IMG/VR virus record: IMGVR_UViG_3300010282_000006 | Span: 10,315-74,314 of that record | DNA from: a virus | Taxonomy: Duplodnaviria > Heunggongvirae > Uroviricota > Caudoviricetes | Direction: 5' to 3' (one strand) | DNA length: 64,000 bases | Shown here: positions 19,508 to 64,000 of the stretch, piece by piece | Layout of the letters: the number at the start of each line of letters is the position of its first letter | How positions within the stretch are numbered: the first letter of the stretch is position 1 | Notes under the pieces: generated by a model | Database searches by the model: none | The model's input: only the letters and a program-made list of their open reading frames with translations | Told to the model about the DNA's origin: nothing | Translations under genes and position numbers: made by a program

Positions 19508-20350
19508 TCAAAATGAACACTCGCACGGTAGGTTGTCGTCGTCTTGAATCAACCGCCGCGCGGTCGCCCAAAATTTCTGAGGCGTTGTCTTTTCCGTGGG
19601 ACAAAGCGCCTTTTCTTTGAGCTTTGCAAATTCTTTCTCAAACTCACGAAGATACCCCTGCTTCAAAATGCTAAATCCGATCTGGTCTTCCGCCCATTTC
19701 GCCTTCTCCCAAACGTCAGGCCGCAGACAATAGACAATGAACCAATGCTGCTTTCCAGCTTTGAGACAGCCGATGCAGTTTGCGTGGTTGAATGTCGCGT
19801 AGGTGCTCGGTCTGCGGATTCCGACATCTTCGATTGCGTGGATCGTCCGAGCCTCCCATGTCAGCGGATACTCGGTCAGGTATCCCATTGCCGCCATGAT
19901 GCCCTTGCGCCGCGTGATACGGTTTTGCTCCGTGGCGTCAAATCCATAGACGACGGACACATCCTGCCGGATGCTCTGCGGCGACGTCGGATAGTTCTTG
20001 GACAGCCATTTTGTGAACGGCTTGGTTTTCAACGTCTCCGTGCAAAGCGCCTGCGATTGAACGCCGTATTTGAACGCTTTTCGCTCTACACAGACGTCAA
20101 ACTGGTCTTTTTCCAACCATCCCTGCATATTTGCGTATGTTATCGGTATGCCGAGATAATCGGCGACCTCTTTTTTGAAGCGTTTAATATCTTCGTGTTC
20201 CGTGCGCGGGCAAAGATCGTGGTTTAATAGGATCGTTTTGCCAGCGCCATAGCGCCTGACGGTCTCCACGGCGGCAAGCGCCGAGGAGTGACCGCCGGAA
20301 AAACAAACGATGTGAGTCATACCGACCACAACCATCACGGTTGAGGTCAA
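19508..20350 (-). CDS. PAPS reductase / DndC-like PP-loop ATP pyrophosphatase family protein
   Basis: 280 aa; PP-loop CFSGGHSS; C-terminal cysteine cluster. Confidence 0.65.
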   Translation of the reverse strand: MTSTVMVVVGMTHIVCFSGGHSSALAAVETVRRYGAGKTILLNHDLCPRTEHEDIKRFKKEVADYLGIPITYANMQGWLEKDQFDVCVERKAFKYGVQSQALCTETLKTKPFTKWLSKNYPTSPQSIRQDVSVVYGFDATEQNRITRRKGIMAAMGYLTEYPLTWEARTIHAIEDVGIRRPSTYATFNHANCIGCLKAGKQHWFIVYCLRPDVWEKAKWAEDQIGFSILKQGYLREFEKEFAKLKEKALCPTEKTTPQKFWATARRLIQDDDNLPCECSF

Positions 20351-28510: not shown

Positions 28511-28625
28511 TTGCGGGAAGCGGGACTTGAACCCGCAGCTTGCGAAGACTGTTCGCCGCCCGACCGTCGAGCTGTTCCCGCGTGCCGCCGCGTAAGCGGC
28601 GGTTGCCGTCTTTCCGGCTGCCAGA
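28511..28625 (-). tRNA. tRNA-like sequence with canonical T-arm and acceptor stem but a non-canonical (5-nt) anticodon loop; possible pseudo-tRNA
   Basis: GCGGGTTCAAGTCCCGC T-arm and GCGGGAA/TTCCCGC acceptor pairing; anticodon arm does not fold canonically. Confidence 0.3.
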
Positions 28626-28660
28626 AAAAAGGAGAAACGTTTGCCGCCCACCACAACGGC

Positions 28661-28750
28661 TGGCGGAAGGGGAGGGGATCGAACCCTCGCGCCGCTTTCG
28701 CGGCCTAGCGGTTTAGCAAACCGCCCTCTTCACCGCTTGAGTACCCTTCC
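28661..28750 (-). tRNA. tRNA-Ser (anticodon GCU) with long variable arm and encoded CCA
   Basis: hand-folded cloverleaf: acceptor GGAAGGG/CCCTTCC, anticodon loop TTGCTAA, T-arm GAGGGTTCGATCCCCTC. Confidence 0.65.
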
Positions 28751-28994: not shown

Positions 28995-30161
28995 TTAGGG
29001 AAACAAGTTATCTACAAACCGATCCATGTCGGTCGTCAGCTTGTAACAGTTGCCATGAGAGGCATGGTTTTTCCAAGAGTTGTATTTTTCGTCAAATTTT
29101 TCGCGCGTCATTTTGCCGGACAGCACCAGCTTCGCGTCCTTTCGTAGTCTCTTTTTGATCTGGCGCTTGTTGTCGCCGGTCAACCTCCGAATGACCTTGC
29201 CGTCCTCGGTAAGATAGCTGTGGAACCCAAGAAAACGGACGCCCTTTCGCATTGGCACGATCTCCGTCTTGCTGTTGAGCGTCAGACGAAGCTCTGATAA
29301 ATACGCTTCGATCTTCTTCTTGCAATCCTTCAAATAATTCTTATCGTCGGAGAGCAAATAGAAGTCGTCCGCATATCGGCCGTACCACACACAGCCAAGG
29401 TCTTCCGTAACGTAGTGATCGAGGCCGTCAAGAAACATCAGCGCAAATACCTGACTGCACTGATTGCCAAGCGGCAACCCGAGACCATCCGTGCTGTCTA
29501 TCAGAAGATTGCAAATCCATCGAATACCATCGTCGTCGAAGTAGCGGCGAACGCAGGCTTTCATCAGGTCGTGGTCGATGCTGTAAAAGAACTTGGTAAT
29601 GTCGCATTTGAGAATGTATCCGCCGCTTCCGTGCTTCGCGTAGAAATCCAGCAGGTTTTCCGAAAGTCGATCCAGCCCGAACAAGGTTCCCTTGCCTGCC
29701 TGACCGGCGTAGTTGTCGAGAACGAAACAGCTTTGCAGCCTCGGCAGCAACACGCAGTCGCACAGGCAATGCTGGAGAACCTTATCGCGGAACGTACCTG
29801 ACTTGACGATCCTTCTTTTCGGCTCGGAAACAACAAACGCGGTGTACGCTCCGACGCGGTATGTTCGCTCCTCCAACTGGCGCTTCATCACGACCAGATT
29901 TTCAAGAGCCAACACGCTGAACCGCTGTGCGCTGCGCTTCTTTCCCTTGCCTTTGCGAGCGACCTGATAGGAACTAAACAGATTTTCAAAGCTGGTCAGC
30001 TTCTCAAAGTCGCTCACGGCTTTTGTATTTGTCCCGCCGACGGCGAGAGAGGTTGTGTACTCTTTTGATAGTATGGCGCACTCCTTGTAGCTGTCTAAGC
30101 AGCTTATAGACCTCGCAAATCCACCAGAACGGGCGAACGTCGTTGCTGTAGTCGCAGTCAT
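28995..30161 (-). CDS. diversity-generating retroelement reverse transcriptase
   Basis: 388 aa; RT motifs incl. YADDF and the DGR-diagnostic LGNQCSQ (in place of QGxxxSP); ATG lies inside the template repeat. Confidence 0.85.
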   Translation of the reverse strand: MTATTATTFARSGGFARSISCLDSYKECAILSKEYTTSLAVGGTNTKAVSDFEKLTSFENLFSSYQVARKGKGKKRSAQRFSVLALENLVVMKRQLEERTYRVGAYTAFVVSEPKRRIVKSGTFRDKVLQHCLCDCVLLPRLQSCFVLDNYAGQAGKGTLFGLDRLSENLLDFYAKHGSGGYILKCDITKFFYSIDHDLMKACVRRYFDDDGIRWICNLLIDSTDGLGLPLGNQCSQVFALMFLDGLDHYVTEDLGCVWYGRYADDFYLLSDDKNYLKDCKKKIEAYLSELRLTLNSKTEIVPMRKGVRFLGFHSYLTEDGKVIRRLTGDNKRQIKKRLRKDAKLVLSGKMTREKFDEKYNSWKNHASHGNCYKLTTDMDRFVDNLFP

Positions 30162-30207
30162 TCCAGTTCAGAATGCCATTGGAGTTGACGTAGCAGACGT
30201 TGCGAGC
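30128..30207 (-). repeat. DGR template repeat (TR), ~80 nt
   Basis: near-identical to two variable regions; differences are confined almost entirely to TR adenines (coding strand). Confidence 0.8.
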
Positions 30208-30238
30208 ATCAGCACACAGCCTGAAGGTCGTCGTCAAG

Positions 30239-30607
30239 TCAGGTCTTCCGCCAAGCGAGTGTCATATATTTGACATCGTGGGCTAAGGCAGACCACGATT
30301 CGCCTGTTGCGGCGCTGATCAGATGAGCGTGGAGGCTGTATTTCACAAGACTTAGGAATTTATTGCAGTTCGTAACCGCGCTTGTCTGGAAATCAAAGCG
30401 TTTTTGCCGCTGTGAGGATGAATCTGTCCGAAAGGAATTGGCATCCATCACATTGCTGTGGATGTTCAGCGCGTATGTTTGAAGCTGGTCGGCCAGCCGA
30501 CGGAACTTTACCGGATAATGCTGTCGGCTGGTCGTCAGATCAAACACGCTGAAAAGAAGCTCCTCTGCTTTGTCTCCTATGTCAAACTTAACCTCTTCGC
30601 TCATCAC
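30239..30607 (-). CDS. avd: Avd-like accessory variability determinant
   Basis: 122 aa basic helical protein between target gene and TR/RT, the canonical position. Confidence 0.6.
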   Translation of the reverse strand: MMSEEVKFDIGDKAEELLFSVFDLTTSRQHYPVKFRRLADQLQTYALNIHSNVMDANSFRTDSSSQRQKRFDFQTSAVTNCNKFLSLVKYSLHAHLISAATGESWSALAHDVKYMTLAWRKT

Positions 30608-30613
30608 AAGACA

Positions 30614-31225
30614 TCAAGATACGAAGATGGAAGAATCCAAGATACAAAACGGGCGAACGTGGCGGCTGCAGTCGCAGCCATTCCAGAACAGAATGCCATA
30701 GGAGCTGACGAAGCAGACGAGGCGAGTGTAGCTGGTACTCTCGTCGAATGTTACGCGCGTGGCAGTCCACCACGGTGAACCCATCTTGGGAAGATACTCG
30801 CGATAGCGGCGGTAGAGATCGGTCGTGAGCAAGGAAATATTGTCACGGACGCTGAACGACTTACCCGTACCGTCGTCTGCGACGAGCTTGACGGTGTGCT
30901 CCACGATGTTGCTTGCGCCAACCGCCTTGGAAAGCTCCTTATAGAAGGTATCGTTGAGATAGCGGCGCACGTCGCTCTTTGCGTAGTCGCCGCCACCGCC
31001 GTATTCCATCGTCTTGACAGAATCCTTGGCGAGAACCGCCGTAGTGGTCGCGCTGTGCTCCAGAACGTAGAACTCGCGGCTGCCGATTTTCACAACGGAG
31101 CCCGCCTTGATCTCGCCGAGCGTGCGGCGAGGCTGCTCAGACAGGGTAACGATGATGTTACCGTTGCCCTGCTCCTTGACGTCGACCTTGACGTTGGGGC
31201 ATTCGTTTTTGATCTCGATCTGCAT
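30614..31225 (-). CDS. DGR target protein 1 with C-terminal variable region (CLec/DUF1566-like)
   Basis: 203 aa; C-terminal ...WWTATRVTFDESTSYTRLVCFVSSYGILFWNGCDCSRHVRPF encoded by VR1. Confidence 0.8.
   Translation of the reverse strand: MQIEIKNECPNVKVDVKEQGNGNIIVTLSEQPRRTLGEIKAGSVVKIGSREFYVLEHSATTTAVLAKDSVKTMEYGGGGDYAKSDVRRYLNDTFYKELSKAVGASNIVEHTVKLVADDGTGKSFSVRDNISLLTTDLYRRYREYLPKMGSPWWTATRVTFDESTSYTRLVCFVSSYGILFWNGCDCSRHVRPFCILDSSIFVS
30648..30726 (-). repeat. DGR variable region VR1
   Basis: 12 mismatches to TR over 79 nt, 11 at TR adenines, 1 G/C mismatch. Confidence 0.8.
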
Positions 31226-39329: not shown

Positions 39330-41273
39330 TTACGCGGTGAGGAGAGGCATAGTCGATGCGGGGGAGATGATGTAGTTCTGCGGCGCGCGCATGACCTCCT
39401 CGTACTCCTCGCGGCCTTGGAACTCATCGACCACGGCGCGGGATTCCGCGTCCATATCGTTGTAGTGCTTCTTTCCATAATCCGGCGGGAGCCACTGGCG
39501 GCTGCGCGCTGCAAAGATGTTGAGGCGGTCAATCAGGCGCTTCGCGTCGTCGTCAAACTTGATGTGGCAGGTTCCCTTCTTGTAGAACGTGGCGGTGAAG
39601 TATTTGAAGTTCATCGTCGTGCGCTGGCACTGTTCCGCAACATGCGCCACGGTGTAGGGGTCGATGGAGGAGCCGGTTTCGCCGCGATCCAGATAGTTCA
39701 AAGCGCGTTCGATGTCCGCGATTTTGCCGGAGAACTCGCGCGCTTCCAATTTCTTCTTGCCGTCATATTTCGTGTAGAATCCGTTGATGGGGAGAATGAC
39801 CTTCATACCGACCTTGTGCGCCTTATTCGTCGCCCACCCACTATAGTAGTGGATGTTCTTGGCGCATTCCGGATACCATGCGTGTTCGGCGGACAGCTCA
39901 TCGAAGAGCTTGTAGATCGCATCCTCCACGCCACGCGAGAGACGCGCGGAGATTTCCAGCATGACCTGCTGAATGTTGTAACGCGAGAAGTCGTAGTCCT
40001 TCATCTCGCTGATTTTGTTGTAATACTCATTATGGAGATCGGAGGTCATCTTTTCCGTCAGTTCGCGGCGGGAAAGCAGCAGATTCCAATACCTTGAGCG
40101 CAAACCGCGCAGATAGGAGTTGATCGTGTCGCTCGTCGCATGGTCGCACTTGTGGTCGTTCACGGAGAGCTGGATGAGCGGCTGGCTGTAAGTATCGGAG
40201 CCGTTCATAATGTACGGCGCAAGCGCGTTATACTCGCGCATGAGAGCGACGCCGGCCTTTGCCTCCATGTTGTAGCCGGAAACAAGCTGATCCATCCAGT
40301 CACCGGCGACCAGATCGGTGACTCCTGCGCTGCGTTCCTCCTCCATCTCAGCGGCGCGTTTGAGACCTTCCAGAATGTTCGACTTACGTTCCGGCTCCGG
40401 AATCCTCAGATAGACGATTGCGACCTCGACGTCGCTCTGACGCTCGGCATGTGAGAAAGCACCGGAAACAAACTCAATCTTGGCCTCGTAACGGGCGAGT
40501 TGCTCCTGCAGCACCTTCCGTCGCTGCGTGTACGGGTTGCGGATGGTCTCTGCATTGAGCAGAGATACGATTTGTCCGCCCGCGTCCTTCTGCATGGAGA
40601 TCGCCTTGAGTAGGTGTTCGTCTCCATTGGAAAACGGCGGATTCATCAGGATCACGTCGTAGTGCTTCATGGTGAAGTAGGTGAGAAAGTCGTCCGACAC
40701 GACACGATAGCCCTTGCCTTTGAGGATCATCTGAAGATTGGCGTCGCGTTCGATGCAGTCCACTCGTTCCATAAAGAAATCGTCCCGATAGTTCCCGTGC
40801 TTGTGGTTGAAGCACTTGAGCGCACAGGAAATCAAGTCGCCCTTTCCGGCGGACGGTTCCAACATTGTATCCGCGTACCGCCAGTCGATCAGATTGACCA
40901 TGCGACCGGCAAGCGCCGTCGGTGTCGGAAAAAACTCTGCATCAGGGGAGGCTGGAAGTGCTCGGACATCCGCGTGCAGCACTTCTGCTCTGTGCTCTGC
41001 ATACCAGTCAGCGAAAATTCTCTTGCCCTCTGCGACGGTTTTGCAGCGACCGATGGGGTTTGTGCGAAAATAGTTGCCGGTGCGCTCGGTGTAGTATTCC
41101 ACATCCATCGGCTTATCCTTATTCCAATGCTCGACCGCAGGCGTGCCGTCCATATAGAAGATCCCGCGAATCACGCCGACCGGCTGCGCGTCCTTGTGGA
41201 TGATGACGCTGCGCTGATAGGCCGGTTTCTCCCATCTGGTACAGCGCTCGGTTTTTTCGGTGTAGTAAAACAT
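39330..41273 (-). CDS. N6-adenine DNA methyltransferase, gamma-class (FPTP motif X, EPSAGKG motif I, NPPF motif IV) with ~400-aa C-terminal domain of unknown function
   Basis: 648 aa after trimming to RBS-preceded MFYYTEK. Confidence 0.75.
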   Translation of the reverse strand: MFYYTEKTERCTRWEKPAYQRSVIIHKDAQPVGVIRGIFYMDGTPAVEHWNKDKPMDVEYYTERTGNYFRTNPIGRCKTVAEGKRIFADWYAEHRAEVLHADVRALPASPDAEFFPTPTALAGRMVNLIDWRYADTMLEPSAGKGDLISCALKCFNHKHGNYRDDFFMERVDCIERDANLQMILKGKGYRVVSDDFLTYFTMKHYDVILMNPPFSNGDEHLLKAISMQKDAGGQIVSLLNAETIRNPYTQRRKVLQEQLARYEAKIEFVSGAFSHAERQSDVEVAIVYLRIPEPERKSNILEGLKRAAEMEEERSAGVTDLVAGDWMDQLVSGYNMEAKAGVALMREYNALAPYIMNGSDTYSQPLIQLSVNDHKCDHATSDTINSYLRGLRSRYWNLLLSRRELTEKMTSDLHNEYYNKISEMKDYDFSRYNIQQVMLEISARLSRGVEDAIYKLFDELSAEHAWYPECAKNIHYYSGWATNKAHKVGMKVILPINGFYTKYDGKKKLEAREFSGKIADIERALNYLDRGETGSSIDPYTVAHVAEQCQRTTMNFKYFTATFYKKGTCHIKFDDDAKRLIDRLNIFAARSRQWLPPDYGKKHYNDMDAESRAVVDEFQGREEYEEVMRAPQNYIISPASTMPLLTA

Positions 41274-41552
41274 TCCGTTCCTCCTTTTCAAATTTGCTGC
41301 TTGCACTCTTACCAGAGAACGATTTGTGAATTTGCTAACTGAACAAAAAAAGACGCCGGATTGCTCCGGCGTCTCACAATTTACAGCAGCTCTACACAGG
41401 TCAGATAGTCATATTCGTCTCCATCAACGGATACGGTGTCGCCGCTCTCAAAGAGGTTTTGCAGCCACTCGTCGTATGCCTCCGGGCTTCCGGCGTTCCA
41501 GCGCTTTTCGTCCAGCCACTCACGGAGCGCGCGGACGCTGGAGAACGTGTAG

Positions 41553-53892: not shown

Positions 53893-54114
53893 CTACTCTG
53901 CGTGAAACTCTCTTGTCGGCTGAATCGTAAATGGTACGCAAGAAACGATTTCGTCCAGCGCATCCTGCTCTTCATCCGACAAGACGCCTGTTCCATAACA
54001 TATTGCGACCTCCACGTCCTTTGTGTCGCTGAAAATGTTGATGATTTTGCCGTTTACAATGTCGATTGCAATTCTCATATTCAAATCCTCCGTTCCGTTT
54101 TTGTGATTCCTCAC
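53893..54114 (-). CDS. hypothetical protein
   Basis: 73 aa. Confidence 0.35.
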   Translation of the reverse strand: MRNHKNGTEDLNMRIAIDIVNGKIINIFSDTKDVEVAICYGTGVLSDEEQDALDEIVSCVPFTIQPTREFHAE

Positions 54115-54230
54115 ACTGTTATATGAGAAAGAATGCAGCGCTTGCTAACCAGTCTGCAAAAAAAATCAGTCGTTCCAAAAAAAATCGAAAGAGGCGGAGC
54201 GATCAAGCTCCGCCCGTTCCGTTACAGGGA

Positions 54231-54533
54231 TTATGCGGCCTGCTTCGGTTCGTAAACCGTTTTGTAATACTCCGGCAGCGTCATCCACCGGCCTTCCGGC
54301 GAGCGTTCCCACGCCCACATCTCATCGAAGAACGCCTGCAGGTGCTTCGGCTGTTTTGCCGCCAGATCGACGTCCCGCAGCTCGTCGCTGTCCAGGCAGC
54401 CGGACGCCTGAAGCTCCGGGTAGGTTCCAGCTTTGCGGTATCCGTTCATCTTCGCCACCCACAGCGATTCGTTCACGACCTGTTCCAAACTCAACATTTC
54501 GTTCCCTCCGTTCCAAGCTCCGCGGCCGCGCAA
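54231..54533 (-). CDS. hypothetical protein
   Basis: 100 aa. Confidence 0.4.
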   Translation of the reverse strand: MRGRGAWNGGNEMLSLEQVVNESLWVAKMNGYRKAGTYPELQASGCLDSDELRDVDLAAKQPKHLQAFFDEMWAWERSPEGRWMTLPEYYKTVYEPKQAA

Positions 54534-54611
54534 GCGCGCGCCGTCGTCTCATCCATTCCGTCGTCCAGCAGCATTTCCAGCAGCTCGTTATAGCTCATCG
54601 TGTTGCCCTCT

Positions 54612-54794
54612 TCAGTCCACGACCTCAATGTCGGTCAGCTCGTAGTATTCCAGCAGTTCCAGCGCGTTTGTGTAATCGCCGAAGTCGTAAAGCTCTTCCG
54701 CCTGCTCGATCATTTCGCAGTAGGTCAGCAGCTCGCCGGTCTCCAGATTCATGTAGTAGCGCCTGCGCGGGAAGGTATTCCTCATCGTGTTCAT
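54612..54794 (-). CDS. hypothetical protein
   Basis: 60 aa. Confidence 0.3.
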   Translation of the reverse strand: MNTMRNTFPRRRYYMNLETGELLTYCEMIEQAEELYDFGDYTNALELLEYYELTDIEVVD

Positions 54795-55236
54795 GTGTTC
54801 CAGCCTCCACTATTTTAACTCGCGTCGTCCGGTGGTCTCCGCAGCTTTTGCCGCAGTCCGTCGCGCGATTCTCACCTATACTTGAGAACGTTCTGCTGTT
54901 CTGCTAACCGGCAGCAAAGAAAATTTTCCAGCCGTTCCAAAATCTGAGCCGTTCCAGCGCCAGCCCAGCAGCACCAGCACCGGCGCAAAAAAGGCGGAGC
55001 CGCAAAAGCTCCGCCCTGTTCCGTCATCGCCGCGTCAGCGCTTCGGATTATCCAGCCATTCCACAAACCGCATAATCAGCTCCACCACCCTGAACGCGCC
55101 GACCGTTACCACGATGTAATACAGTGCGCCGTACTCCATGCCGTTTTACCTCCCCTAATCGTTTCATTCGTTCCGCCAGACGTTCCACCGGCAGCGCGGC
55201 CAGCCATTCCAGAAGCCAGCCGCGCGCCGCGTTCCG

Positions 55237-55599
55237 TCAAATGAAATACATTTCCCCGTTGAGCTCCAAGGCGACAGCCTCCTGCCCCATGTCCGCCTTC
55301 AGCCGCTCGCAATGCTCGACAACTTCGCCGATGTGCTCCTGCAGATCCGCGTCGCTCGCGTAGGCGAAAACGACCGTTGTATTTTCCGCGACCAGACCGG
55401 CCGCAGGGCTGAGCCAGTAACCCAGCGCCGGCGTGCTCGTCGCCCCACCGAAGAGCCGCGACAGCAGCGCCGCCGTCGCCTTGACCTGTTCCGTATTGTC
55501 CACGGCCTGATCGACCGCAGCCGTCGCCGGAACGTAGACCGTTATCTTGCTGGACAGCTTGAAGCACCGCTGCAGCTTCGCATTGTTGATCGTCATGGT
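55237..55599 (-). CDS. hypothetical protein (start trimmed)
   Basis: 120 aa. Confidence 0.4.
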   Translation of the reverse strand, partial: TMTINNAKLQRCFKLSSKITVYVPATAAVDQAVDNTEQVKATAALLSRLFGGATSTPALGYWLSPAAGLVAENTTVVFAYASDADLQEHIGEVVEHCERLKADMGQEAVALELNGEMYFI

Positions 55600-55699
55600 G
55601 GTATCTCCTTTTCCGTTTTGAAGTAGGGGCGAGCGGATGCCCGCCCCTCGCATACATGAGATTAGATTATTGGCTTGCTAACCGTTCCGAAAAATTTTC

Positions 55700-56503
55700 T
55701 TACATGTGCAGCGCCGTCAACTGCTCGCGCAGCTTCACAATACGCTTGTGCACGGCGACGTTGGAGATCGTTCCGATGTCCTGTGCAATCTCGCGTTCCG
55801 TGTATCCGCGCCCGACAAGCTCCAAAATCCTGTTGTTGATTTCGTCGCAGCCGTCCCGGAAGTCCTCCATATCTGCCTTGAGGATAGCGGCGCGTTCCGT
55901 GTCGTCTTCGCTCGCGCAAATCGTTTCGACCGCGCTGCAGGTCTCCCCGTCTTCCGTTTCCAGCTCGCGCACGCTCGCCGCGCTGTGCTTGCTGTCCTGA
56001 TAGAAAACCGCTGCAACGCTCGCGTCGGCAGCCTCATAGACCAGCTTGACCAGCTCAAGCGGGCGCTTGCCCTGAGCCGCGCGGCGCTCGTTTCGCTTCG
56101 TCAGCTTGTCGGCGTCGAGCTTGACCGCCAGCCGCAGCCACGTTTCTGAAACGAACTCGTCAAGATCGTGCAGCCCGTACAGGCCGAACGCGGGCACCTC
56201 GGAGAACTGCAAATCGTGGTCTTCGGTGCTGTACTTGATGCGGTCTTTCGCGGCTTTGTGGATGCACTTCTTCATGAATGCGACCTGCTCGCCCTCAGAC
56301 AGGGCAGCCCACGCGGAGACGACGCGCGCCGCGTTCGCGCCAGCGTTCGCGCCTTCGGTCTCTGCCCACGCAATACGCAGGCAGGCGGAGAAGAGGACTT
56401 CAGAGACCTTGCAGCCGATTTCAGAGGCAGCCGCGCGGCGAATGTCCCACGCGCGGAGCATAACGGCGGACTTGTTGGTGGTGTTGGTGGTGGTGGTTTT
56501 CAT
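55700..56503 (-). CDS. sigma-70-like protein (C-terminal region-4 HTH TEREIAQDIGTISNVAVHKRIVKLR); first gene of the leftward array
   Basis: 267 aa; HTH shared with 26843..28444. Confidence 0.45.
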   Translation of the reverse strand: MKTTTTNTTNKSAVMLRAWDIRRAAASEIGCKVSEVLFSACLRIAWAETEGANAGANAARVVSAWAALSEGEQVAFMKKCIHKAAKDRIKYSTEDHDLQFSEVPAFGLYGLHDLDEFVSETWLRLAVKLDADKLTKRNERRAAQGKRPLELVKLVYEAADASVAAVFYQDSKHSAASVRELETEDGETCSAVETICASEDDTERAAILKADMEDFRDGCDEINNRILELVGRGYTEREIAQDIGTISNVAVHKRIVKLREQLTALHM

Positions 56504-56602
56504 GGTGGTATCTCCTTTACAAAATAGATTTTTGTCGCCATATCGGAAGAGCCGGAGCGGAGCCGGAGCCGAAGCCCCGAAGCGCCCCGCGCGCCCCTCT
56601 TG

Positions 56603-56631
56603 AGCTACCTATATTGTACCACGGTCAACCC
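56603..56631 (-). promoter_or_regulatory. canonical sigma70 promoter (TTGCAA-17-TACAAT) heading the leftward gene array
   Basis: hexamers read on minus strand. Confidence 0.5.
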
Positions 56632-56705
56632 TATATTGCAACAGATTTTTGTCTTGCTAACCTCAGAACGGTATAAATTTTTGTCGTTCAAAATTGTGCA
56701 AAATA

Positions 56706-57118
56706 CCGAAGCCCTGACAGATCAGCCGGAGACCTGGCACGGCAGCGGAGCAGGCGAGCAGGGCGACGCATAGCGGAGCCATGCACCGACGAGCGAAGCG
56801 AGCGCGAGCGCCAGCAGGCGCAGCGCAGCGGAGCCAGCAAGCGAGGCCGCCAGCCCAGCAGCAGCACCAGCACCACCGGCAGCGGGCAGCAGAGGCGAAG
56901 AGCAGCCAGAACGGAGAGAGGGAAGGGGGAGAGGAGCGGAACGCCGCCACACGTCCAGCACATAAGGCCGGAGACCGAACGCCCAGCACCAGCACCACCG
57001 GCACGCCCTCAGCAGGCCGCCACCAGCGCCCGCAGATCGACCGGAAGAGCGCCAGCAGGCGCAGCCTACCAGACGCGGACACAGCGCCAGAGGCGAAGCG
57101 CCGCCGCCGTCACCATCC
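56706..57118. repeat. ~410-bp compositionally extreme block: T almost absent on plus strand (A absent on minus), with CAGCACCAGCACCACCGGCA-type short repeats
   Basis: about 11 T in 413 nt by eye-count; overlapping ORFs are low-complexity artefacts. Confidence 0.6.
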
Positions 57119-57712
57119 CGCGCACGGTCTCCGCAGGCGCTCCGCCGGTTCTACTTTTTGCGAGTATGCAGAACCGGACGCCCGGAAGCCCTGAAACGGC
57201 GCGCCCTCAGCGCTTGCGCCGCGTCGATGCAGGCAGCGCAGCAGACCAGCGCGCCGCGAATAGTCCACAGGGGGAGCCTTGACATTTTGGCGCGTACCCA
57301 TAACGCAACCTCGTGGTATAGTACCTCACACCACGCACCAATTCTCAAAAATCCCCTCACACATCACACCCCACCTTGCACCACGCAAGTGTTCTGATAG
57401 AAACAATACAAACTACCATACATAATTGAGAGCTTCTAAATAACCGGCGTTCTCGAACGGTTTTTCCAAGCACCTCAAAGAATCATTCTGCATTTACATC
57501 CCTTTGTGTTGTTATACCGACAACGCTCGGAAAGCATACCATAAATCTATCCTCAGCACGGTAAGAAACCCGCATACAGAAAGGCTTTGACCGACATGAC
57601 ATCGTGCGATCTTGCGTTGAATGATGGATTCTAGCGTTTCTGCAGGATCATCGAAATCGTCAAAGTTCATAAAAACATACGCCGAAAGTACGATAAAAAT
57701 TTATATAATGTA

Positions 57713-57741
57713 TTGACTTCAGCAGAGAGATAAAGTATAAT
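57713..57741 (+). promoter_or_regulatory. sigma70-type promoter (TTGACT-17-TATAAT) for integrase
   Basis: hexamers read on plus strand in AT-rich leader. Confidence 0.45.
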
Positions 57742-57816
57742 AAAGCCAATGAGACAGGCGTGTTTTTTGCTTTTTCTAAAGTACGACATAAATCTATTTA
57801 CGGAAGGAGCAGCAAT

Positions 57817-58752
57817 ATGAACGAGCAGATAGACCTCTTCTCTGCGGCTGTATATGCTGAGCGCACTGCGGGACTGGCCGTATGCGGTGAACATGCCGTT
57901 GAGATCAGAGACGAATCGGAAATCGACGAATGGCGTGACAAAGCGATAGACTCCGCAACCTATCCGGGAACGACGATCACAACCAGAAACGGTAAGAAGG
58001 TCTCTGACAAGCTGCTGCTGTTCCCCGGCGTCGATCCTACGCTTGAAGCACACAGTAAAGGCTATCGACCCAACTACCGTAAAGGAGGAACACAGACTGT
58101 CTACCCCATCAAGAAATGGGATGAATTAGAACGTGTCGCTCTTTGGCTCTACGAGAACAAGGATCGCAAATACCTTCTTGGATTTATCCTTGGTATCAAC
58201 CTCGGATTGAGAGCAAACGAGCTTTTGAAGCTCAGGATGCTTGACGTCTATCTGCCTGACGGTACAATCCGCTACGTCGAAGATACGCAGGACACCAATG
58301 ACCGCATCAATATCTCTCAGAGCAAGACACACGGCAAGATCCGTACTGTCTATCTCAACACCGCTTGCGCATCTGCTTTGCACTGGTACTTTGGTGATCA
58401 TCCTTACGGATTGGATAAGAATAAACTGATTTTCTCCTCAAGAGAGGGAGGAGCTATCGAAGTCGACACCTTCCGCAAGGTACTGAAGGAAGCCTGCGAA
58501 GCCGTAGGCATTCGTCAGAACATCGGTACTCACACCATGCGGAAGACATGGGGATGGTGGCAGTACACTACCAACACCGGCAAGCAGTACGGTGATGTCA
58601 CACAGCTCCAACGGTTGTACGGACATGAAAGCCCGATGACGACCTTGCGGTATATCGGTGTGATGGATGAAGAGGATAAGGCTCTCTATCATTCGATGGT
58701 GCTTGCGGTTGCCGGAGACGTCATCGCTTATCGGGACGGAGAATACAAATAA
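57817..58752 (+). CDS. int: tyrosine recombinase / phage integrase
   Basis: 311 aa; C-terminal catalytic region with GTHTMRKTW and LYGHESPMTTLRYIGV (R..H..R..Y pattern); RBS GGAAGGAG. Confidence 0.8.
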   Translation: MNEQIDLFSAAVYAERTAGLAVCGEHAVEIRDESEIDEWRDKAIDSATYPGTTITTRNGKKVSDKLLLFPGVDPTLEAHSKGYRPNYRKGGTQTVYPIKKWDELERVALWLYENKDRKYLLGFILGINLGLRANELLKLRMLDVYLPDGTIRYVEDTQDTNDRINISQSKTHGKIRTVYLNTACASALHWYFGDHPYGLDKNKLIFSSREGGAIEVDTFRKVLKEACEAVGIRQNIGTHTMRKTWGWWQYTTNTGKQYGDVTQLQRLYGHESPMTTLRYIGVMDEEDKALYHSMVLAVAGDVIAYRDGEYK

Positions 58753-59026
58753 TTTATTTTTCCATCCCATTTCTGTACGGTAATACCATCATCGAGACCT
58801 TGTACGGTAACGAGTCGAGGATAATCTGGCGGTATGTAAGGCTTGGCAATTATTATAAGGCTTTACGGTATACAAAATCCGCATCGCGTAAATTGTCCGT
58901 CTTGCACTGCTTAGGAGGTGCTGCGCAAAGCAAAGCTCGACGCCCCTGTCGAGCGGCAGATGGCAGAACGGCCGCCTGTCCGCTGCAGAGCTTTCAAGTA
59001 TCCCGCGAGCGAAGCGAAGCGGACAG

Positions 59027-59479
59027 GTGCAAAACGTGAAAAAGTTATTTTTGCAACTTTTTTGCAAGAAACAGAATCCCCTTACCCCTTTAAGGGTCTA
59101 CGTTCAAGAATCGCCTGTTTATGCGGGTTTGAGATGGGTCAAAATCGAGTTTTGGAACCTCGATGGTTCCAAGCAAAAAGTGAAACTGCAATTTTGCAAC
59201 TATTTTGGAGGTTTTGGATTGAGTGCCGACGTGTGCGTTTTTGATTTGTGGCTGAAGGGCTGCGAGATAAACGAGACAAAAATCTATCCGTTGGAAGGGC
59301 AAGGCAAAACGGCGCTCTACAAAGTTTGGAAAGATTTTATCGGCGCGGACTATCACGAATACCACACAACGCCGGTCTTTATCGGCTGGGTGGACGGAAG
59401 GCAGGTCTGCGCGACGACGAACTATAAAAGCGCTTTGGCGTGTTGGAGAAATTACGCGAAAAGCGGAGGTCGTGTTTGA
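59027..59479 (+). CDS. hypothetical protein
   Basis: 150 aa. Confidence 0.35.
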   Translation: MQNVKKLFLQLFCKKQNPLTPLRVYVQESPVYAGLRWVKIEFWNLDGSKQKVKLQFCNYFGGFGLSADVCVFDLWLKGCEINETKIYPLEGQGKTALYKVWKDFIGADYHEYHTTPVFIGWVDGRQVCATTNYKSALACWRNYAKSGGRV

Positions 59480-59629
59480 GATTTGGAGGTGGATCGGTGC
59501 TTTACTGGTGGCAACGGCTTGAAATCTGGTTGTGTGGGAGAATGTGTCGGCTGCGTAACCGTTATTGTGGCTGTGGCAAGATGGGAAAGTGGTTCTGTAT
59601 GCGGTGCAGATTAAAGTAGGAGGATTGAT

Positions 59630-60007
59630 ATGGCAATAAGAGATGACCTGATTCGCCGCCGTGATGCGATTGAAAGCGTTGCTGGTCTTGCGGATACCAT
59701 GTCCGTGTGTGTGAGCACGGATGAGTGCCGTGGCATGATGAGAATGAAAATGTGTGCTCTGTCTGCGATCAATGAAGTACCTGCAGCAGCGCCGCGCGGT
59801 GAAGAGGCGGACGGTGAACGCGAGAATGCGTGGGTGAGCGTTAAGGATGCGCTTCCCGACAACCACACGGACTGCCTTGTCTACTGCGGCGATGACTACG
59901 GCATTATGATCTCTCATTACTGCTATGGCTTTTACACCTACGATAGCAAGGTGACGCACTGGCAGTATTTGCCGAAAGCACCGGAGGGAGAGCTGACTCG
60001 TGGGTGA
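59630..60007 (+). CDS. hypothetical phage protein (DUF551-like C-terminal WVSVKDALPDNHTDCLVY)
   Basis: 125 aa. Confidence 0.4.
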   Translation: MAIRDDLIRRRDAIESVAGLADTMSVCVSTDECRGMMRMKMCALSAINEVPAAAPRGEEADGERENAWVSVKDALPDNHTDCLVYCGDDYGIMISHYCYGFYTYDSKVTHWQYLPKAPEGELTRG

Positions 60008-60191
60008 TATAAAGCGTAGGCTGATAGCCTGCCAGCATTGCGGGCAGATATACCTGACGCAGAACGAAGTAACGGGAAAATGGGGCGTTGCTTGCGATTG
60101 CGGATTTGCAAAGAGAAAAATCGGCTGGTACGATACAGAGCGCGAAGCAATCAAAAGGTGGAATTACGTCGCTATGGACTGGGAGGCGTGA
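60000..60191 (+). CDS. Lar-family restriction alleviation-like protein
   Basis: CQHCG...CDCG...REAIKRWN. Confidence 0.5.
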   Translation: MGDIKRRLIACQHCGQIYLTQNEVTGKWGVACDCGFAKRKIGWYDTEREAIKRWNYVAMDWEA

Positions 60192-60192
60192 C

Positions 60193-60537
60193 ATGGAACG
60201 ACTGACACAGAAAAGTTTTGATATTTGCGCGGATTACTGCGCGTGTAGCAAGGATTGCGGGTTCTTTAAGCATGAAGTCAATGTAATGTGCAATGACGCG
60301 GAGATATACAACAAATTGCGCGCCTACGAGGACGCGGAGGAACAAGGACTGCTTATCCGCTTGCCGTGCAAGGTGAACGAGGTGGTGTGGATGTTCCACC
60401 CGAAATATAAAGCAGTGCATAGATGTATGTACCCATCGGCGTCTAATATGTTGGCCGATATCGAAAGCGGTTGTCTAATTTTTAAGACCCGTGAAGAAGC
60501 CGAAGCCGCGCTTGCCAAGGAAGGCGGCGCGATATGA
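60193..60537 (+). CDS. hypothetical protein, paralog of 61813..62265 (shared LRAYEDAEEQGLLIRLPC and TREEAEAALAK)
   Basis: start trimmed to MERLTQ. Confidence 0.4.
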   Translation: MERLTQKSFDICADYCACSKDCGFFKHEVNVMCNDAEIYNKLRAYEDAEEQGLLIRLPCKVNEVVWMFHPKYKAVHRCMYPSASNMLADIESGCLIFKTREEAEAALAKEGGAI

Positions 60538-60743
60538 CCGCAGTTGAGAAGCTGATATTGGAAAACCAGAAAATAATACTTCTCGGCATCTCGGCACTTC
60601 TCACGCCCAAATGCAGGGGAATGATGGATGCCAACGGAGAAACAAAAACGAATGTGCGCCTTATTGAGAGATACAAGGGAACCAGTCGCTTTTTGGAAGA
60701 AGCTGCATTAAAGGATGGTGACGAATGGCACGAATTGAACTGA
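60534..60743 (+). CDS. hypothetical protein
   Basis: 69 aa. Confidence 0.3.
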   Translation: MTAVEKLILENQKIILLGISALLTPKCRGMMDANGETKTNVRLIERYKGTSRFLEEAALKDGDEWHELN

Positions 60744-60913
60744 TGGACGTCGCGGATCGTGTTGGGTGGCACTGCTATTATTGCGGAGAGCGCAGAAGTG
60801 TTAAGTACAAGTTGCATTTTGGCAGTTTTACAATCCCTGTTTGCAATGCTTGCGCGGCGCGATTGTCTGGAAAAACAATGCTGAAGAAGGAGGAGAATCA
60901 TGGGTGTGTATAA
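60725..60913 (+). CDS. zinc-ribbon protein
   Basis: 62 aa CYYCG...CNAC. Confidence 0.35.
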   Translation: MARIELMDVADRVGWHCYYCGERRSVKYKLHFGSFTIPVCNACAARLSGKTMLKKEENHGCV

Positions 60914-61199
60914 TCCGCTTTTGGATATGCCGGTGAGTTGTGCGGAGTGTGATACGCGCGGCGGTAGCAACTGCTTTTTATCAAACCAGTTATCTTATCC
61001 TGATGTTCTGAGACGCAGGCATCCCGATTGCCCGCTTGTTGAGGTGAAGGTTCCACACGGGCGGCTGATCGACGCGGACGAGGCTTACATAAACATGATG
61101 TGTGAGATGTGTGGGTCTGGGTATCAGGGTCGAGCACTGAGTATTTTGAGATCTGATTTATACTCTCCTTCCATCATTGAAGCGGAAAGTGCGGATTAA
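60900..61199 (+). CDS. hypothetical protein, MGVYNP family (paralog of 61591..61809 and 62267..62434)
   Basis: 99 aa. Confidence 0.4.
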   Translation: MGVYNPLLDMPVSCAECDTRGGSNCFLSNQLSYPDVLRRRHPDCPLVEVKVPHGRLIDADEAYINMMCEMCGSGYQGRALSILRSDLYSPSIIEAESAD

Positions 61200-61210
61200 G
61201 GAGGTCGGCT

Positions 61211-61453
61211 GTGATTTTCTTTACGAAAGTAAAAGAGTCGTGCTCGTGTAACAACTGCCATAGTCCGAACTACTATACGCCGATTGCGACGTTGGAAACG
61301 GTGGATGAGCTGTTCGATTTGCAGATTGGAAGTTGTGTAGTAACGCTTTGCCGCGACTGCATAAGGCAGTTGAGCCTGCAGGCTGATATGCTAAACGGTG
61401 TTACCCGCGAGAGCGGACAATATACCAAGGAGAAACAGCATGAGGGGTCTTGA
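61211..61453 (+). CDS. hypothetical Cys-rich protein
   Basis: 80 aa. Confidence 0.3.
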   Translation: MIFFTKVKESCSCNNCHSPNYYTPIATLETVDELFDLQIGSCVVTLCRDCIRQLSLQADMLNGVTRESGQYTKEKQHEGS

Positions 61454-61590
61454 AAACGGGATCACGCTGTCAAAGGTGTGGTTTTTTGTATCGGCGCTTA
61501 TAATCGGCGTTTCGCTTAAAGAGCCGTATTTGGGAATGGGTGTGTGGTTCTTTGGATGCGGGATTGAAGCCGCGATAAAGGGGGTATAGC

Positions 61591-61809
61591 GTGGGAGTGT
61601 ATAACCCGTTTGCGGAGCTTCCGAATAGCTGCGTATTGTGCGAATCCAGAGAGAAATGCGATTTATACCGCCAGAACGTCGGCAGGTCGGTTTACCGACA
61701 CAACGATTGCCCGCTTGTTGAGATAGACAGACCGCATGGCGATATACTTGACATCGAAGAGTACGAGCGATACGGAGAGGCGAAAATACTTATAGAGGCG
61801 GAGAAATAA
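61591..61809 (+). CDS. hypothetical protein, MGVYNP family
   Basis: 72 aa. Confidence 0.4.
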   Translation: MGVYNPFAELPNSCVLCESREKCDLYRQNVGRSVYRHNDCPLVEIDRPHGDILDIEEYERYGEAKILIEAEK

Positions 61810-61812
61810 GCA

Positions 61813-62265
61813 ATGGAACGACTGACAGGTAGGTATGACGGCGGTGCCATTTTAATTTGCGAACAAGATGCGTGCAAACTGTATGGTGATGGTATGTGTT
61901 CTGCGAGCAATCCGTGCAATGTGGAACAAAATATGATCGACCGCCTTGCAGCATACGAGGACGCGGAGGAACAGGGTTTGCTTATCCGTTTGCCGTGCAA
62001 TGTTGGCGATACGGTGTACTGCTTGTGGTACGAGCCGTGCCACTTAGGAAATAGTCACCCTAACAGCTATGATTGCGAGGGGTGCGAGGACGAGTGCGAC
62101 TTAAAGAAAGCAGTTGTTGAGCAGGTAGCGGGTGGCGTTGAATGGATAGTTCGCAATATGCTTGGTAAAAGGCCGTTTGCATACGCTACGCGCGAAGAAG
62201 CCGCAGCCGCGCTTGCAAAGGACATAAATGTCCCCGGCAAAGATGTCGGGAAGATGGAGGGATAG
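61813..62265 (+). CDS. hypothetical protein, paralog of 60193..60537
   Basis: 150 aa. Confidence 0.4.
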   Translation: MERLTGRYDGGAILICEQDACKLYGDGMCSASNPCNVEQNMIDRLAAYEDAEEQGLLIRLPCNVGDTVYCLWYEPCHLGNSHPNSYDCEGCEDECDLKKAVVEQVAGGVEWIVRNMLGKRPFAYATREEAAAALAKDINVPGKDVGKMEG

Positions 62266-62266
62266 C

Positions 62267-62434
62267 ATGGGAGTGTATATTAAAGGCATGAATATGCCGA
62301 AGGACTTTTTTCGATGCCCGTTTGCAGTCATTCTCAATGCGATAAACTCAAGCGGAAGAATGGGTTATGGTGATTATTGCGAATTGTATGACGCAATCTC
62401 GGATATTTATGGAACGACTGGTGGTGCGGTATGA
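62267..62434 (+). CDS. hypothetical protein, MGVY family (start trimmed)
   Basis: 55 aa. Confidence 0.3.
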   Translation: MGVYIKGMNMPKDFFRCPFAVILNAINSSGRMGYGDYCELYDAISDIYGTTGGAV

Positions 62435-62841
62435 CAGTAAAGGATTTTAGCGTTGGGAAGCCTGCGTACCTTTTGCGTTGCAATGGGTATGACAAATATC
62501 CTGATCCGCCGCGAGAAGTCGAGGTGGCAAAGGTTGGTCGCAAGCTGGTTTATGTTAAGACGAGCAGTTGGGGAATGACTTCGTTTGTTGCTCCGCTTTG
62601 TCCGGATACGCGCCCGTACTTTGAGCAGAACATTGACTACGGTAATAAGGATCTTCTGTTCTCGACGATTGAGGTGTACAACGAGTGGATGGAGCAGAAG
62701 GAGCTGTCGCGATGGTTCCGTGAAAACTTCCATAAAATCGAATCGCTCAACGCTGAGCGCCTGCGCCTCGCAAAGCAGGTGCTCGTGTCGGACGACTGGC
62801 ACGACCCAAAACGCGCGGCGGAGTGGAAGGGGCTTCGCTGA
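62431..62841 (+). CDS. hypothetical protein
   Basis: 136 aa. Confidence 0.4.
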   Translation: MTVKDFSVGKPAYLLRCNGYDKYPDPPREVEVAKVGRKLVYVKTSSWGMTSFVAPLCPDTRPYFEQNIDYGNKDLLFSTIEVYNEWMEQKELSRWFRENFHKIESLNAERLRLAKQVLVSDDWHDPKRAAEWKGLR

Positions 62842-63160
62842 ATAAATTGTTAAGGTGTTACCCCGCGAGAGCGGATAATATACCAAAGCCATTGCCGATT
62901 TGCACATCTGCAATAAGAAAGTCCGCAGACGTATGGTGCTGCGGTGAGCGGGTGGGATCGCCGATCGGTTGGGAAATGACGCCGATAAAAGTACCGTAAA
63001 ACGGCCATTCGGCAAATCTATATGCGCCATTGGTGTAATTGGTATTAGCACGCCCCATAAGTGGGAGGGCAGCGGAAATAGTTGTTGCCGACGAATACCA
63101 CTGACGATGCAGAAAAAATCGTGAACGAGGGCAACATCGCACACGATTCTGTTTCGGCTT

Positions 63161-63187
63161 CCGGTTCGAGTCCGGAATGGCGCACCA
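63161..63187 (+). other. tRNA 3'-end-like fragment (T-arm TCCGGTTCGAGTCCGGA + acceptor ATGGCGC + A + CCA) without a canonical 5' half; candidate att-site remnant
   Basis: read from sequence; the matching 5' acceptor strand is 150 nt upstream. Confidence 0.3.
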
Positions 63188-63308
63188 AATCCGCAAGCGG
63201 TCGAGGAAGCGCGAGAAGTTAAGCGCATGGAGCTGTGCGCACAGCAACGGCCATTTAAGCCGGATGTACCATGTGGCTGATGAAAAGGCGAAGCGCGGCG
63301 GATGATAC

Positions 63309-63385
63309 GCGGGAGTAGCTCAATTTGGCGGAGCACCGGTCTTCCAAACCGGGTGTTGCGGGTTCGAGTCCCGTTTCCCGCTCCA
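63309..63385 (+). tRNA. tRNA-Gly (anticodon UCC), CCA encoded
   Basis: hand-folded cloverleaf: acceptor GCGGGAG/TTCCCGC, anticodon stem CCGGT/ACCGG loop CTTCCAA, T-arm GCGGGTTCGAGTCCCGT. Confidence 0.75.
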
Positions 63386-63613
63386 AAAGTGGCGGTTCGA
63401 TTCCGCATCGGTGATAGAGCGCTTGGCAGCGACGGGGTTCTCCGGGCAGGATCGGAGATGATTTGTGGCGAGTCAGACGGCGACTCTCGCCTAACCTTCC
63501 GGCGTGACCGGACAGTAGGACAAGATCCGTCCGCATGGCAAGGCGGACGTTAAACTGCCAAAGATTCCAAAAAATTCAGAGACTACTTATGCACTGGAAT
63601 GGAGGTGCGGCGG

Positions 63614-64000
63614 ATGGCAATGTATAAGATCGGCGTGACAGAGGCCGGTGACGCGGGGCTTGACCTTTCGTGGGAAGAGAAGCTCGACAGCGTGGATGGA
63701 GCAGTCCTGATTACGAAGCGCGTGACGCATGACTTCATCAATGCAGTCCACCGACATCCGGAGAAGCTGATCGTCCATGCGACATGCACCGGATACGGCG
63801 GTACTGTGATCGAGCCGCGCGTGCCGCGAGACGGATACCAGCTCGGTTCCGCAAAGGCGCTGGTGAACGACAATTTCCCCATTGATCGAATTGTGATACG
63901 GGTAGACCCTATTATTCCGACGATGAAGGGGATGCGGCGGGCGGTCGGCGTGATCAAGACAGCCATCATCCTTGGTTTCAGTCGGTTTCGGATCAGTGTG
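63614..64000 (+). CDS. partial CDS running off the window (host-like gene, function not recognised)
   Basis: RBS GGAGGTG then ATG; open to window end. Confidence 0.4.
   Translation, partial: MAMYKIGVTEAGDAGLDLSWEEKLDSVDGAVLITKRVTHDFINAVHRHPEKLIVHATCTGYGGTVIEPRVPRDGYQLGSAKALVNDNFPIDRIVIRVDPIIPTMKGMRRAVGVIKTAIILGFSRFRISV

Follow-up and report, generated by a model that had tools for sequence, protein, structure and literature searches.

Why would a phage keep a single base off one strand of its DNA over several hundred nucleotides? The question is raised by a 64,000-nt stretch (hereafter, the window) of the Caudoviricetes record IMGVR_UViG_3300010282_000006 of IMG/VR (positions 10,315 to 74,314 of that record), which represents a large temperate phage with a long leftward gene array, and in which a block at positions 56706-57118 is almost devoid of T on the plus (+) strand. 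An initial annotation had counted roughly 11 T in about 413 nt; the exact count is 106 A, 150 C, 145 G and 12 T over 413 nt, and the composition and skew profiles bear the depletion out. T accounts for 2.9% of the block as against 24.7% of the 64-kb window, and the G+C content of the block is 70%. The longest T-free run of the window (171 nt, 56783-56953) also lies here, the runners-up outside the block being of 56 nt (54954-55009) and 54 nt (56544-56597).

Across the window, the T content of sliding 400-nt windows falls to a minimum of 10, compared with a mean of 98.7 (standard deviation 12.2), while A, C and G never drop below about 52 per 400 nt, so that the depletion is extreme only for T; the AT skew at the block reaches +0.93. 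The binomial probability of finding 12 or fewer T in 413 nt (p = 0.247) is approximately 1e-34, and that of a 171-nt T-free run anywhere in 64 kb is approximately 1e-17. A chance origin is thus excluded. Beyond the block, T remains scarce as far as about 57269 (33 T over 564 nt in total), and 10 of these T fall in the loop of a hairpin at 57149-57173.

Relatives were recovered by protein-anchored searches, using as anchor the 267-aa product of the first leftward early gene, and by searches with two DNA patterns, the conserved motif GGGGGAGCCTTSACATTT and the hairpin pattern TTCYRC-N13-RCRGAA. The resulting family comprises about 60 IMG/VR contigs and 7 Oscillospiraceae genome records, grouped in 15 sequence clusters. 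Hominicoprocola fusiformis, Dysosmobacter segnis and further Oscillospiraceae are represented among the genome records, together with the complete chromosome of Clostridiales bacterium CCNA10. A syntenic T-depleted block, which the initial annotation had suggested looking for, occurs in every true member, in the same slot and orientation, with a length of 290-630 nt and 3-7% T, and is kept even where identity of the anchor protein falls to 38%. From one clade to another the bodies of the blocks are unalignable (44-59% identity) although the neighbouring protein is 58-89% identical, indicating that composition and layout are conserved, and not sequence. No match was returned by blastn against deposited phages. 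A second class of hairpin-pattern matches (TTCCGCTTTTCGAGAGCGGGCAGAA) was set aside altogether, given that none has a T-poor block; in L047, the sole locus of this class that was inspected, the match falls inside the coding sequence of a membrane protein and the neighbouring genes differ.

Selection against T is apparent from polymorphism within four independent clades. Polymorphic sites in the blocks are A/G in 123 cases and C/T in 26, compared with 107 and 166, respectively, in flanking non-coding DNA of the same alignments (Fisher p ~2e-18). The observed A/G to C/T ratio of 4.7 in the block exceeds the ratio of about 1.5 expected from its base composition, C/T polymorphisms being suppressed roughly threefold, which indicates that new T alleles are removed. 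Ongoing selection therefore keeps T off the + strand. That such alleles do not arise in the first place fits less well, because deamination of an exposed strand would add T.

The block is not protein-coding. Indels of 1, 2, 4, 10, 41, 56 and 68 nt occur inside it within clades that are 89-97% identical, lag-3 autocorrelation reveals no period-3 signal, and T is missing from all codon positions. Long open reading frames (ORFs) are an automatic consequence of a T-free strand, which lacks stop codons in all six frames; those overlapping the block have ends that move from clade to clade, public annotations mostly show no gene there, and neither of the two overlapping ORFs of the window has a match in Pfam or PHROG, nor does an exact look-up of the 137-aa product return any record. 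The earlier proposal that the constraint acts at the level of the nucleic acid is upheld by these data together with the specific lack of C/T polymorphisms, and no conserved protein-coding gene covers the block in the relatives. Neither strand corresponds to a specifically folded RNA (folding z-scores of 0.18 and 0.49), and a permissive search of Rfam 15 over 54000-59000 returned three sub-threshold chance matches, none of them in the block. Composition is the conserved property.

In terms of words, the block is enriched in CAG, AGC and CCAGC (CAG on the + strand, equivalent to CTG on the minus (-) strand, by 2.3-fold) and depleted in AA and GG, the latter being present at 0.67-fold. The recurring 20-nt unit described initially is real, CAGCACCAGCACCACCGGCA occurring at 56862 and 56984, and a second pair of 19 nt (GAGCGCCAGCAGGCGCAGC) occurs at 56806 and 57047. 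A related short copy, annotated at 54961-54985, also exists (24-27 nt, 54958-54981) but is absent at that position in the closest relative. Tandem Repeats Finder detected only weak periodicities of 3-9 nt in the block. The suggestion of a binding array for a regulator, iterons included, was not sustained: no repeat unit is conserved, and the longest internal repeats vary from clade to clade, staying within chance expectation in 8 of the 15 clusters. Avoidance of start and stop codons was likewise rejected as the selected trait, since TGA, TAG, TAA and ATG all occur among the 12 remaining T, as was a clustering of GATC sites, which number 0-4 per block and are inconsistent between blocks.

The block is part of a module of about 0.8 kb, situated in a 1.25-kb non-coding gap between the first leftward early gene and a tyrosine recombinase gene. 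From left to right, the features of the module and its two neighbours are as follows.

55700-56503, - strand: first leftward early gene, left neighbour of the module (267 aa; Gp111-like N-terminus and sigma/helix-turn-helix-like C-terminus)
56504-56694: switch region, separating the first leftward early gene from the block
56544-56597, - strand: stretch of 54 nt without T, corresponding to an A-free part of the 5' leader in the leftward early mRNA
56641-56613, - strand: leftward sigma70-like promoter, from a promoter scan
56645-56659 and 56677-56691: two copies of the recurrent motif ATTNTTGNCNTGCTA in the switch region
56649-56654 and 56672-56677, + strand: candidate rightward promoter, TTGTCT-17-TATAAA, read by eye
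56695-56709: operator-like element TGTGCA-N3-TGMCRA, conserved in 12 of 15 clusters at the left border of the block
56706-57118, + strand: T-depleted block, 12 T in 413 nt
56906-56942, + strand: central polypurine tract GGAGAGAGGGAAGGGGGAGAGGAG..., which every clade has at a constant offset from the conserved hairpin (about -200 to -150 nt)
57149-57173: conserved hairpin or inverted repeat TTCYRC-N13-RCRGAA, loop TTTTnnnGAGnnn, within the T-poor region
57174-57269, + strand: second T-poor segment, 8 T in 96 nt
57270-57327: conserved 3' element, made up of a G-run, TTGACATTTT (57279-57288), a 34-nt variable segment and TAGTACCTC (57319-57327)
57317-57440, + strand: G-poor, C-rich tract, 8 G in 110 nt, the minimum of the window
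57713-57741, + strand: near-consensus sigma70 promoter of the recombinase gene, TTGACT-17-TATAAT, from a promoter scan
57760-58752, + strand: gene for a small tyrosine recombinase of the integrase family (Pfam PF00589, PHROG 216)

All phage genes to the left of the block lie on the - strand, and the recombinase gene is the right-hand neighbour of the module in every clade, with equivalent TTGACA-17-TATAAT sites ahead of it in the relatives. The leftward promoter falls close to the position first proposed for it (56603-56631). Back-to-back with it stands the candidate rightward promoter, and two operator-like motifs overlap the latter. Within the window, ATTNTTGNCNTGCTA has 13 matches with no more than 2 mismatches, compared with 3.9 expected, mostly just upstream of leftward genes (6899, 15766, 25620, 25684, 32938, 55666, and in the switch region 56645 and 56677, in + strand coordinates); it probably represents a promoter or operator motif specific to this phage, which the 267-aa helix-turn-helix protein might recognise. 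The A-free leader of the leftward transcript can form GC-rich hairpins with UUCG loops and is T-poor in several relatives, not in all.

The internal layout of the module recurs across clades. In one of them the operator-like element is a perfect palindrome, TGTGCATATTGCACA. Between -200 and -150 from the conserved hairpin the positional composition over the 15 clusters is 0.35 A, 0.45 G and 0.15 C, and the C-rich part of the block body follows the polypurine tract. The hairpin itself includes one pair with a compensatory change (T-A / C-G), and in one clade the inverted repeat is symmetric, in a 10-5-10 arrangement. Farther right, the distance from TTnACA (of TTnACATTTT) to GTACC is 42 nt in every family member (L001-L108), and the 34-nt variable segment in between holds a second hairpin at a constant position, built from at least 10 different stem sequences across clades and single-copy at each locus. 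The G-poor tract is equally general, with 9-17% G at +125 to +300 from the conserved hairpin in 15 of 15 clusters; in the window it includes the longest G-free run (57336-57377), and it has the composition of a Rho-utilisation (rut) site only if it is transcribed rightward. Read in the - sense, TTnACATTTT gives AAAAUGU followed in most clades by AA, GA or AG, that is, a mini-ORF in which AUG is directly followed by a stop.

Two of the roles put forward initially, an origin or R-loop-forming region and a transcript lacking U (or A), are compatible with these data. The one we tentatively favour, as a possibility rather than a probability, is that the module directs a rightward, untranslatable, U-free RNA which forms an unusually stable RNA:DNA hybrid and serves as an R-loop origin for a T7-like replisome. 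With T kept off the + strand, a rightward transcript would contain no U and its template no dA. Transcription would start from a regulated promoter back-to-back with the leftward early promoter, and the product would escape both translation and intrinsic termination, since start codons and terminator tails all require U. Lacking weak rU:dA pairs, the transcript would form an unusually stable hybrid with its template, and the persistent R-loop would act as primer and helicase-loading site, a transcription-primed origin for the primase-helicase and DNA polymerase of the phage. The downstream hairpins and the G-poor, C-rich tract would then mark the processing and Rho-dependent termination of the transcript.

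Several observations point in this direction. Hybrid and duplex energies were compared with nearest-neighbour parameters from the literature; in 400-nt windows, hybrid minus duplex stability for RNA of the + sense reaches the global minimum of the window at 56705 (z = -5.6). With the same parameters, the values for + sense RNA are -0.15 to -0.21 kcal/nt in all 15 clusters, whereas those for - sense RNA range from +0.03 to -0.22, so that the property is constant over the clusters for the + sense and not for the - sense. T depletion begins about 20 nt past the predicted start of the candidate rightward promoter. At a threshold of at least 9 of 12 matching positions, 6 of 15 clusters have promoter-like sites on the + strand, at a distance of 60-110 nt ahead of the block, and 2 of 15 have such sites on the - strand to the right of the module. 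Rightward transcription is therefore favoured by the position of the promoter, by the + strand site counts and by the rut-like tract, which exists in the + sense only and lies downstream of the block in all clades. The window also encodes its own primase-helicase, DNA polymerase, exonuclease and Erf, and this primase-helicase is common to the block-bearing contigs of most clades, while no replication initiator was recognised in the window. More distant phages also have the primase-helicase, at 50-58% identity. The cumulative AT skew has its minimum at 56688 and the cumulative GC skew at 58383, and gene orientation also switches at the block.

A good deal weighs against an R-loop origin, beginning with the fact that the mechanism is reached entirely by inference. 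Classical R-loop-prone sequences are G-skewed and carry G clusters. Here, by contrast, GG is under-represented, and neither GC skew nor purine content is conserved, their values in different clades lying at -0.23 to +0.20 and 0.49-0.70, respectively. The favourable hybrid energy largely restates the T depletion, and the skew turn coincides with the switch in gene orientation and is thus not independent evidence. The block lacks an internal AT-rich unwinding element, AT-rich DNA being confined to the upstream promoter/operator region; the replication genes are about 44 kb away; and the block occupies the slot where temperate phages usually keep their repressor. The rightward promoter is weak (TATAAA) and at the threshold used has no counterpart in 9 of 15 clusters. 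Finally, the non-Watson-Crick pairs in both hairpins are almost all A.C on the + strand, equivalent to G.U on the - strand, a hint that it may be the - strand that folds, even if T avoidance on the + strand biases this count.

Known transcription-primed origins offer a partial parallel. Plasmids carrying a T7 origin require transcription by RNA polymerase and are sensitive to RNase H (PMC8373140), and mycobacteriophages have transcribed non-coding origins of about 400-500 bp (PMC7157519). As in ColE1 RNA II, the T7 primary origin, T4 oriF/oriG and the origins of non-RepA cluster A mycobacteriophages (PMC7157519), the region here is non-coding, a few hundred bp long and directly downstream of a promoter (in this case a candidate one), in a phage with its own T7-like replisome, no recognisable initiator in the window and a turn in strand asymmetry; the very stable RNA:DNA hybrid is here predicted by calculation. 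None of these origins, however, is defined by the exclusion of a single base: the one proven RNA-based phage origin examined for comparison, that of Alma, has an ordinary base composition, with 17-19% A and T, which counts further against the parallel, and those of T4 and T7 have an AT-rich unwinding element in place of the high G+C content of the block. In herpesvirus lytic origins, G+C-rich non-coding transcripts form RNA:DNA hybrids (PMC12599619; Kaposi's sarcoma-associated herpesvirus preprint 10.64898/2026.08.31.748444). These origins resemble the block in being G+C-rich, low-complexity, non-coding regions beside divergent promoters, in viruses that switch between latency and lytic growth; they differ in their eukaryotic hosts and replication machinery, and in being repeat-based and G-rich, not single-base-depleted. 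The resemblance is one of functional analogy only.

Nearly as likely, and with the R-loop origin one of the two leading readings, is a U-depleted regulatory non-coding RNA or leader, transcribed rightward from a lysogenic-side promoter in the usual slot of the repressor gene. Its U-free body would be untranslatable, free of terminators and poor in AU-rich nuclease sites, and its specificity would reside in the 3' domain, with two hairpins and single-stranded motifs in a nut-like arrangement, acting in immunity, in control of the recombinase or rightward genes, or in antitermination. The position is the canonical one for a repressor, from the divergent promoter/operator region to the recombinase gene, and no repressor-like ORF is present in that interval. 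The second hairpin, constant in position and yet with at least 10 stem sequences, also speaks for a functional RNA; as this covarying structure is single-copy per genome, it is not a repeated operator. The constant 42-nt motif spacing, the rut-like tract downstream and the overlap of operator-like motifs with the candidate rightward promoter fit as well. It is hard to see why an RNA regulator should need a body of 300-600 nt strictly devoid of U. This body offers no conserved stretch as a pairing seed, folds no better than its composition dictates and matches no Rfam family. There is also no conserved complementarity to the early transcripts, and antisense pairing with these was rejected, the only match of at least 13 nt being the copy at 54958-54981, which is missing from the equivalent place in L002, the closest relative.

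The precedents for non-coding regulators at this position differ in the same respect. P4 CI RNA and the c4 RNA of P1 and P7 are short and structured, arise by processing, and show a conserved complementarity to the RNAs that they target. A non-coding product of the block would resemble them in taking the place of the repressor gene next to an early promoter, but its body, at 300-600 nt, shows neither a specific fold nor conserved complementarity. Sites of the lambda nut type consist of boxA and boxB; the 3' element at 57270-57327, to which this comparison applies and not to the T-free body, is similar in that linear motifs flank a short hairpin that varies in sequence and is constant in position. 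It has no sequence similarity to nut sites, no N or Nus partner was identified, and it lies about 600 nt, rather than tens of nucleotides, from the putative transcription start.

Less likely than either is that the functional strand is the other one, whether as an A-free leftward transcript coming from the recombinase side, or as A-free single-stranded DNA of the - strand, for instance a lagging-strand template or a loading zone for the primase-helicase. This strand is rich in CTG, GCT and GCTGG, with CTG showing the 2.3-fold enrichment noted above, and has a polypyrimidine tract of the CCUCUC type. In the second hairpin, where 5 or more independent stems contribute, all 16 non-Watson-Crick cells are A.C on the + strand and thus G.U on the - strand, and the conserved hairpin at 57149-57173 shows the same tendency (4 versus 1), but the count is confounded, given that T avoidance on the + strand would by itself favour A.C over G.T. 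In addition, 54 nt within the leader of the leftward early mRNA are themselves devoid of A, and the genes to the left are all on the - strand. Set against this are the scarcity of - strand promoter-like sites to the right of the module (2 of 15 clusters), hybrid energetics in the - sense that are not conserved between clades, and the G-rich tract with which such an RNA would begin, for which no meaning is known.

A role as double-stranded DNA is improbable. The element could span the distance from the operator-like palindrome at its left edge to the inverted repeat at 57149-57173, as a spacer or as an accessory region where proteins bind or the DNA loops; alternatively, it could supply the adjacent tyrosine recombinase with an accessory arm. 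Its composition excludes promoters, terminators and palindromes containing A and T. It is indeed flanked by an operator-like palindrome and a conserved inverted repeat, the recombinase gene is always adjacent, and a T-free strand cannot hold a -10 or -35 hexamer in either orientation. Yet a function of the duplex leaves the asymmetry between a tolerated A and a banned T without explanation, as an equal ban on A and T would serve, and no conserved repeat unit or iteron is found. The module is moreover contiguous in the integrated prophage of a complete chromosome (L025), so that it is not the attP crossover. The attP crossover site was accordingly rejected as a candidate, with block, hairpins and recombinase gene contiguous in all 7 bacterial genome records, including the complete 3.56-Mb chromosome.

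There is very little to recommend the view that the block is a by-product, devoid of function of its own, of strand-specific mutation, either adenine mutagenesis by a diversity-generating retroelement (DGR) or deamination. The window does encode a complete DGR (28995-31225, - strand), with the following parts.

28995-30161, - strand: reverse transcriptase (RVT_1; motifs LGNQCSQ and YGRYADDF)
30239-30607, - strand: small Avd-like ORF
30614-31225, - strand: target gene (DUF6273)
30125-30206 and 30645-30726: template repeat and variable repeat, 82 nt, 84% identical, with differences mostly at - strand adenines

The block, lacking A on that same strand, shares the adenine asymmetry of this repeat pair. 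However, it lies outside the target gene, no second copy of it exists as a template or variable partner, and homologues of the reverse transcriptase were found only in the clade of the window itself and not in long block-bearing contigs of other clades. Polymorphisms involving T are mostly ordinary transitions, under-represented rather than hypervariable, the internal layout is positionally conserved, and deamination of a displaced strand would add T instead of removing it. Genes for tRNA-Thr and tRNA-Ser (28512-28750) lie just downstream of the DGR.

A low-complexity protein-coding gene, whose T-free strand would encode hydrophilic residues only and no stop codon, is hardly credible, since the openness of all six frames is a necessity, ORFs of 137-139 aa overlapping the block (and one of 324 codons in a relative, which begins in the TTGTGCA motif) have ends that shift between clades and no Pfam or PHROG match, gene callers mostly skip the block, and the frame-breaking indels, the lack of a period-3 signal and the missing C/T polymorphisms and T at all codon positions refute it as a conventional gene.

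The block is thus real, conserved and under selection, and mechanistically unexplained. It may represent, in what we regard as close to an even call, a novel type of cis element whose defining trait is the absence of one nucleotide on one strand, instead of a sequence or a fold: a U-free (or A-free) unit of 0.3-0.6 kb with a conserved 3' hairpin domain, selected in temperate phages of Oscillospiraceae, and working either as an RNA or R-loop device in the repressor slot or as an origin encoded by composition. Literature searches for T- or U-free regions in phages turned up no description of such an element. More cautiously, it can be placed as a variant of a non-coding transcribed origin or regulatory region.

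If the element is functional, as the selection data indicate, the phage encodes a function purely in the base composition of one strand and tolerates complete turnover of the sequence, and elements defined in this way are missed by homology searches, RNA-structure searches and gene callers alike. In the case at hand, the conserved non-coding module, of about 0.8 kb, occupies the core of the lysis-lysogeny region in an abundant group of uncultured human-gut phages. Prophage copies are present in the cultured strains Hominicoprocola fusiformis CLA-AA-H269, Dysosmobacter segnis BX15 and Clostridiales bacterium CCNA10, which makes the function directly testable. An R-loop origin, if true, would supply a simple compositional rule for finding such origins, and a U-free regulatory RNA, if true, would be a new design principle for untranslatable, terminator-proof transcripts.

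As regards the genes around the module, the leftward array encodes a primase-helicase, DNA polymerase, exonuclease, Erf, ThyX, NrdD, several DNA methyltransferases and the DGR. A link of the block to hypermodified thymidine was considered and rejected, the thymidylate synthase being ThyX, accompanied by a deoxynucleoside monophosphate kinase and a nucleotidase, with no hydroxymethylase signature. The DNA polymerase gene is split into two - strand ORFs (9252-11732 and 7553-8476) by an HNH/NUMOD4 homing-endonuclease gene (8543-9199). At least 4 DNA methyltransferases are encoded (340-1143, 16502-17203, 17393-18088 and 39330-41306), as are, on the - strand, a PAPS-reductase-like protein (19508-20350) and a class-V aminotransferase of the cysteine-desulfurase-like type (25702-27048), a pair that recalls DndC and DndA of DNA phosphorothioation. 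The DNA of this phage may be heavily modified.

Closer to the module, the - strand carries a 34-aa hydrophobic ORF (55141-55037) followed by an intrinsic terminator (GGCGGAGC...GCTCCGCC and T6), beyond which an A-free, GCUGG-rich stretch holds the 24-27-nt copy of the block, the one that the closest relative lacks. The hexamer GTTCCG (CGGAAC on the gene strand) appears strikingly frequent by eye, within the early genes and in the gaps separating them, in 54200-55700 and in positions 6700-8000 of L002, especially in the latter. To the right of the recombinase gene (58750-64000) the GC skew is strongly positive (+0.12 to +0.23), the ORFs have no match in Pfam or PHROG, and a tRNA-Gly gene lies at 63309-63385. 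In the relatives this rightward arm holds phage-like genes (NADAR, HNH), indicating that the recombinase does not stand at the end of the prophage.

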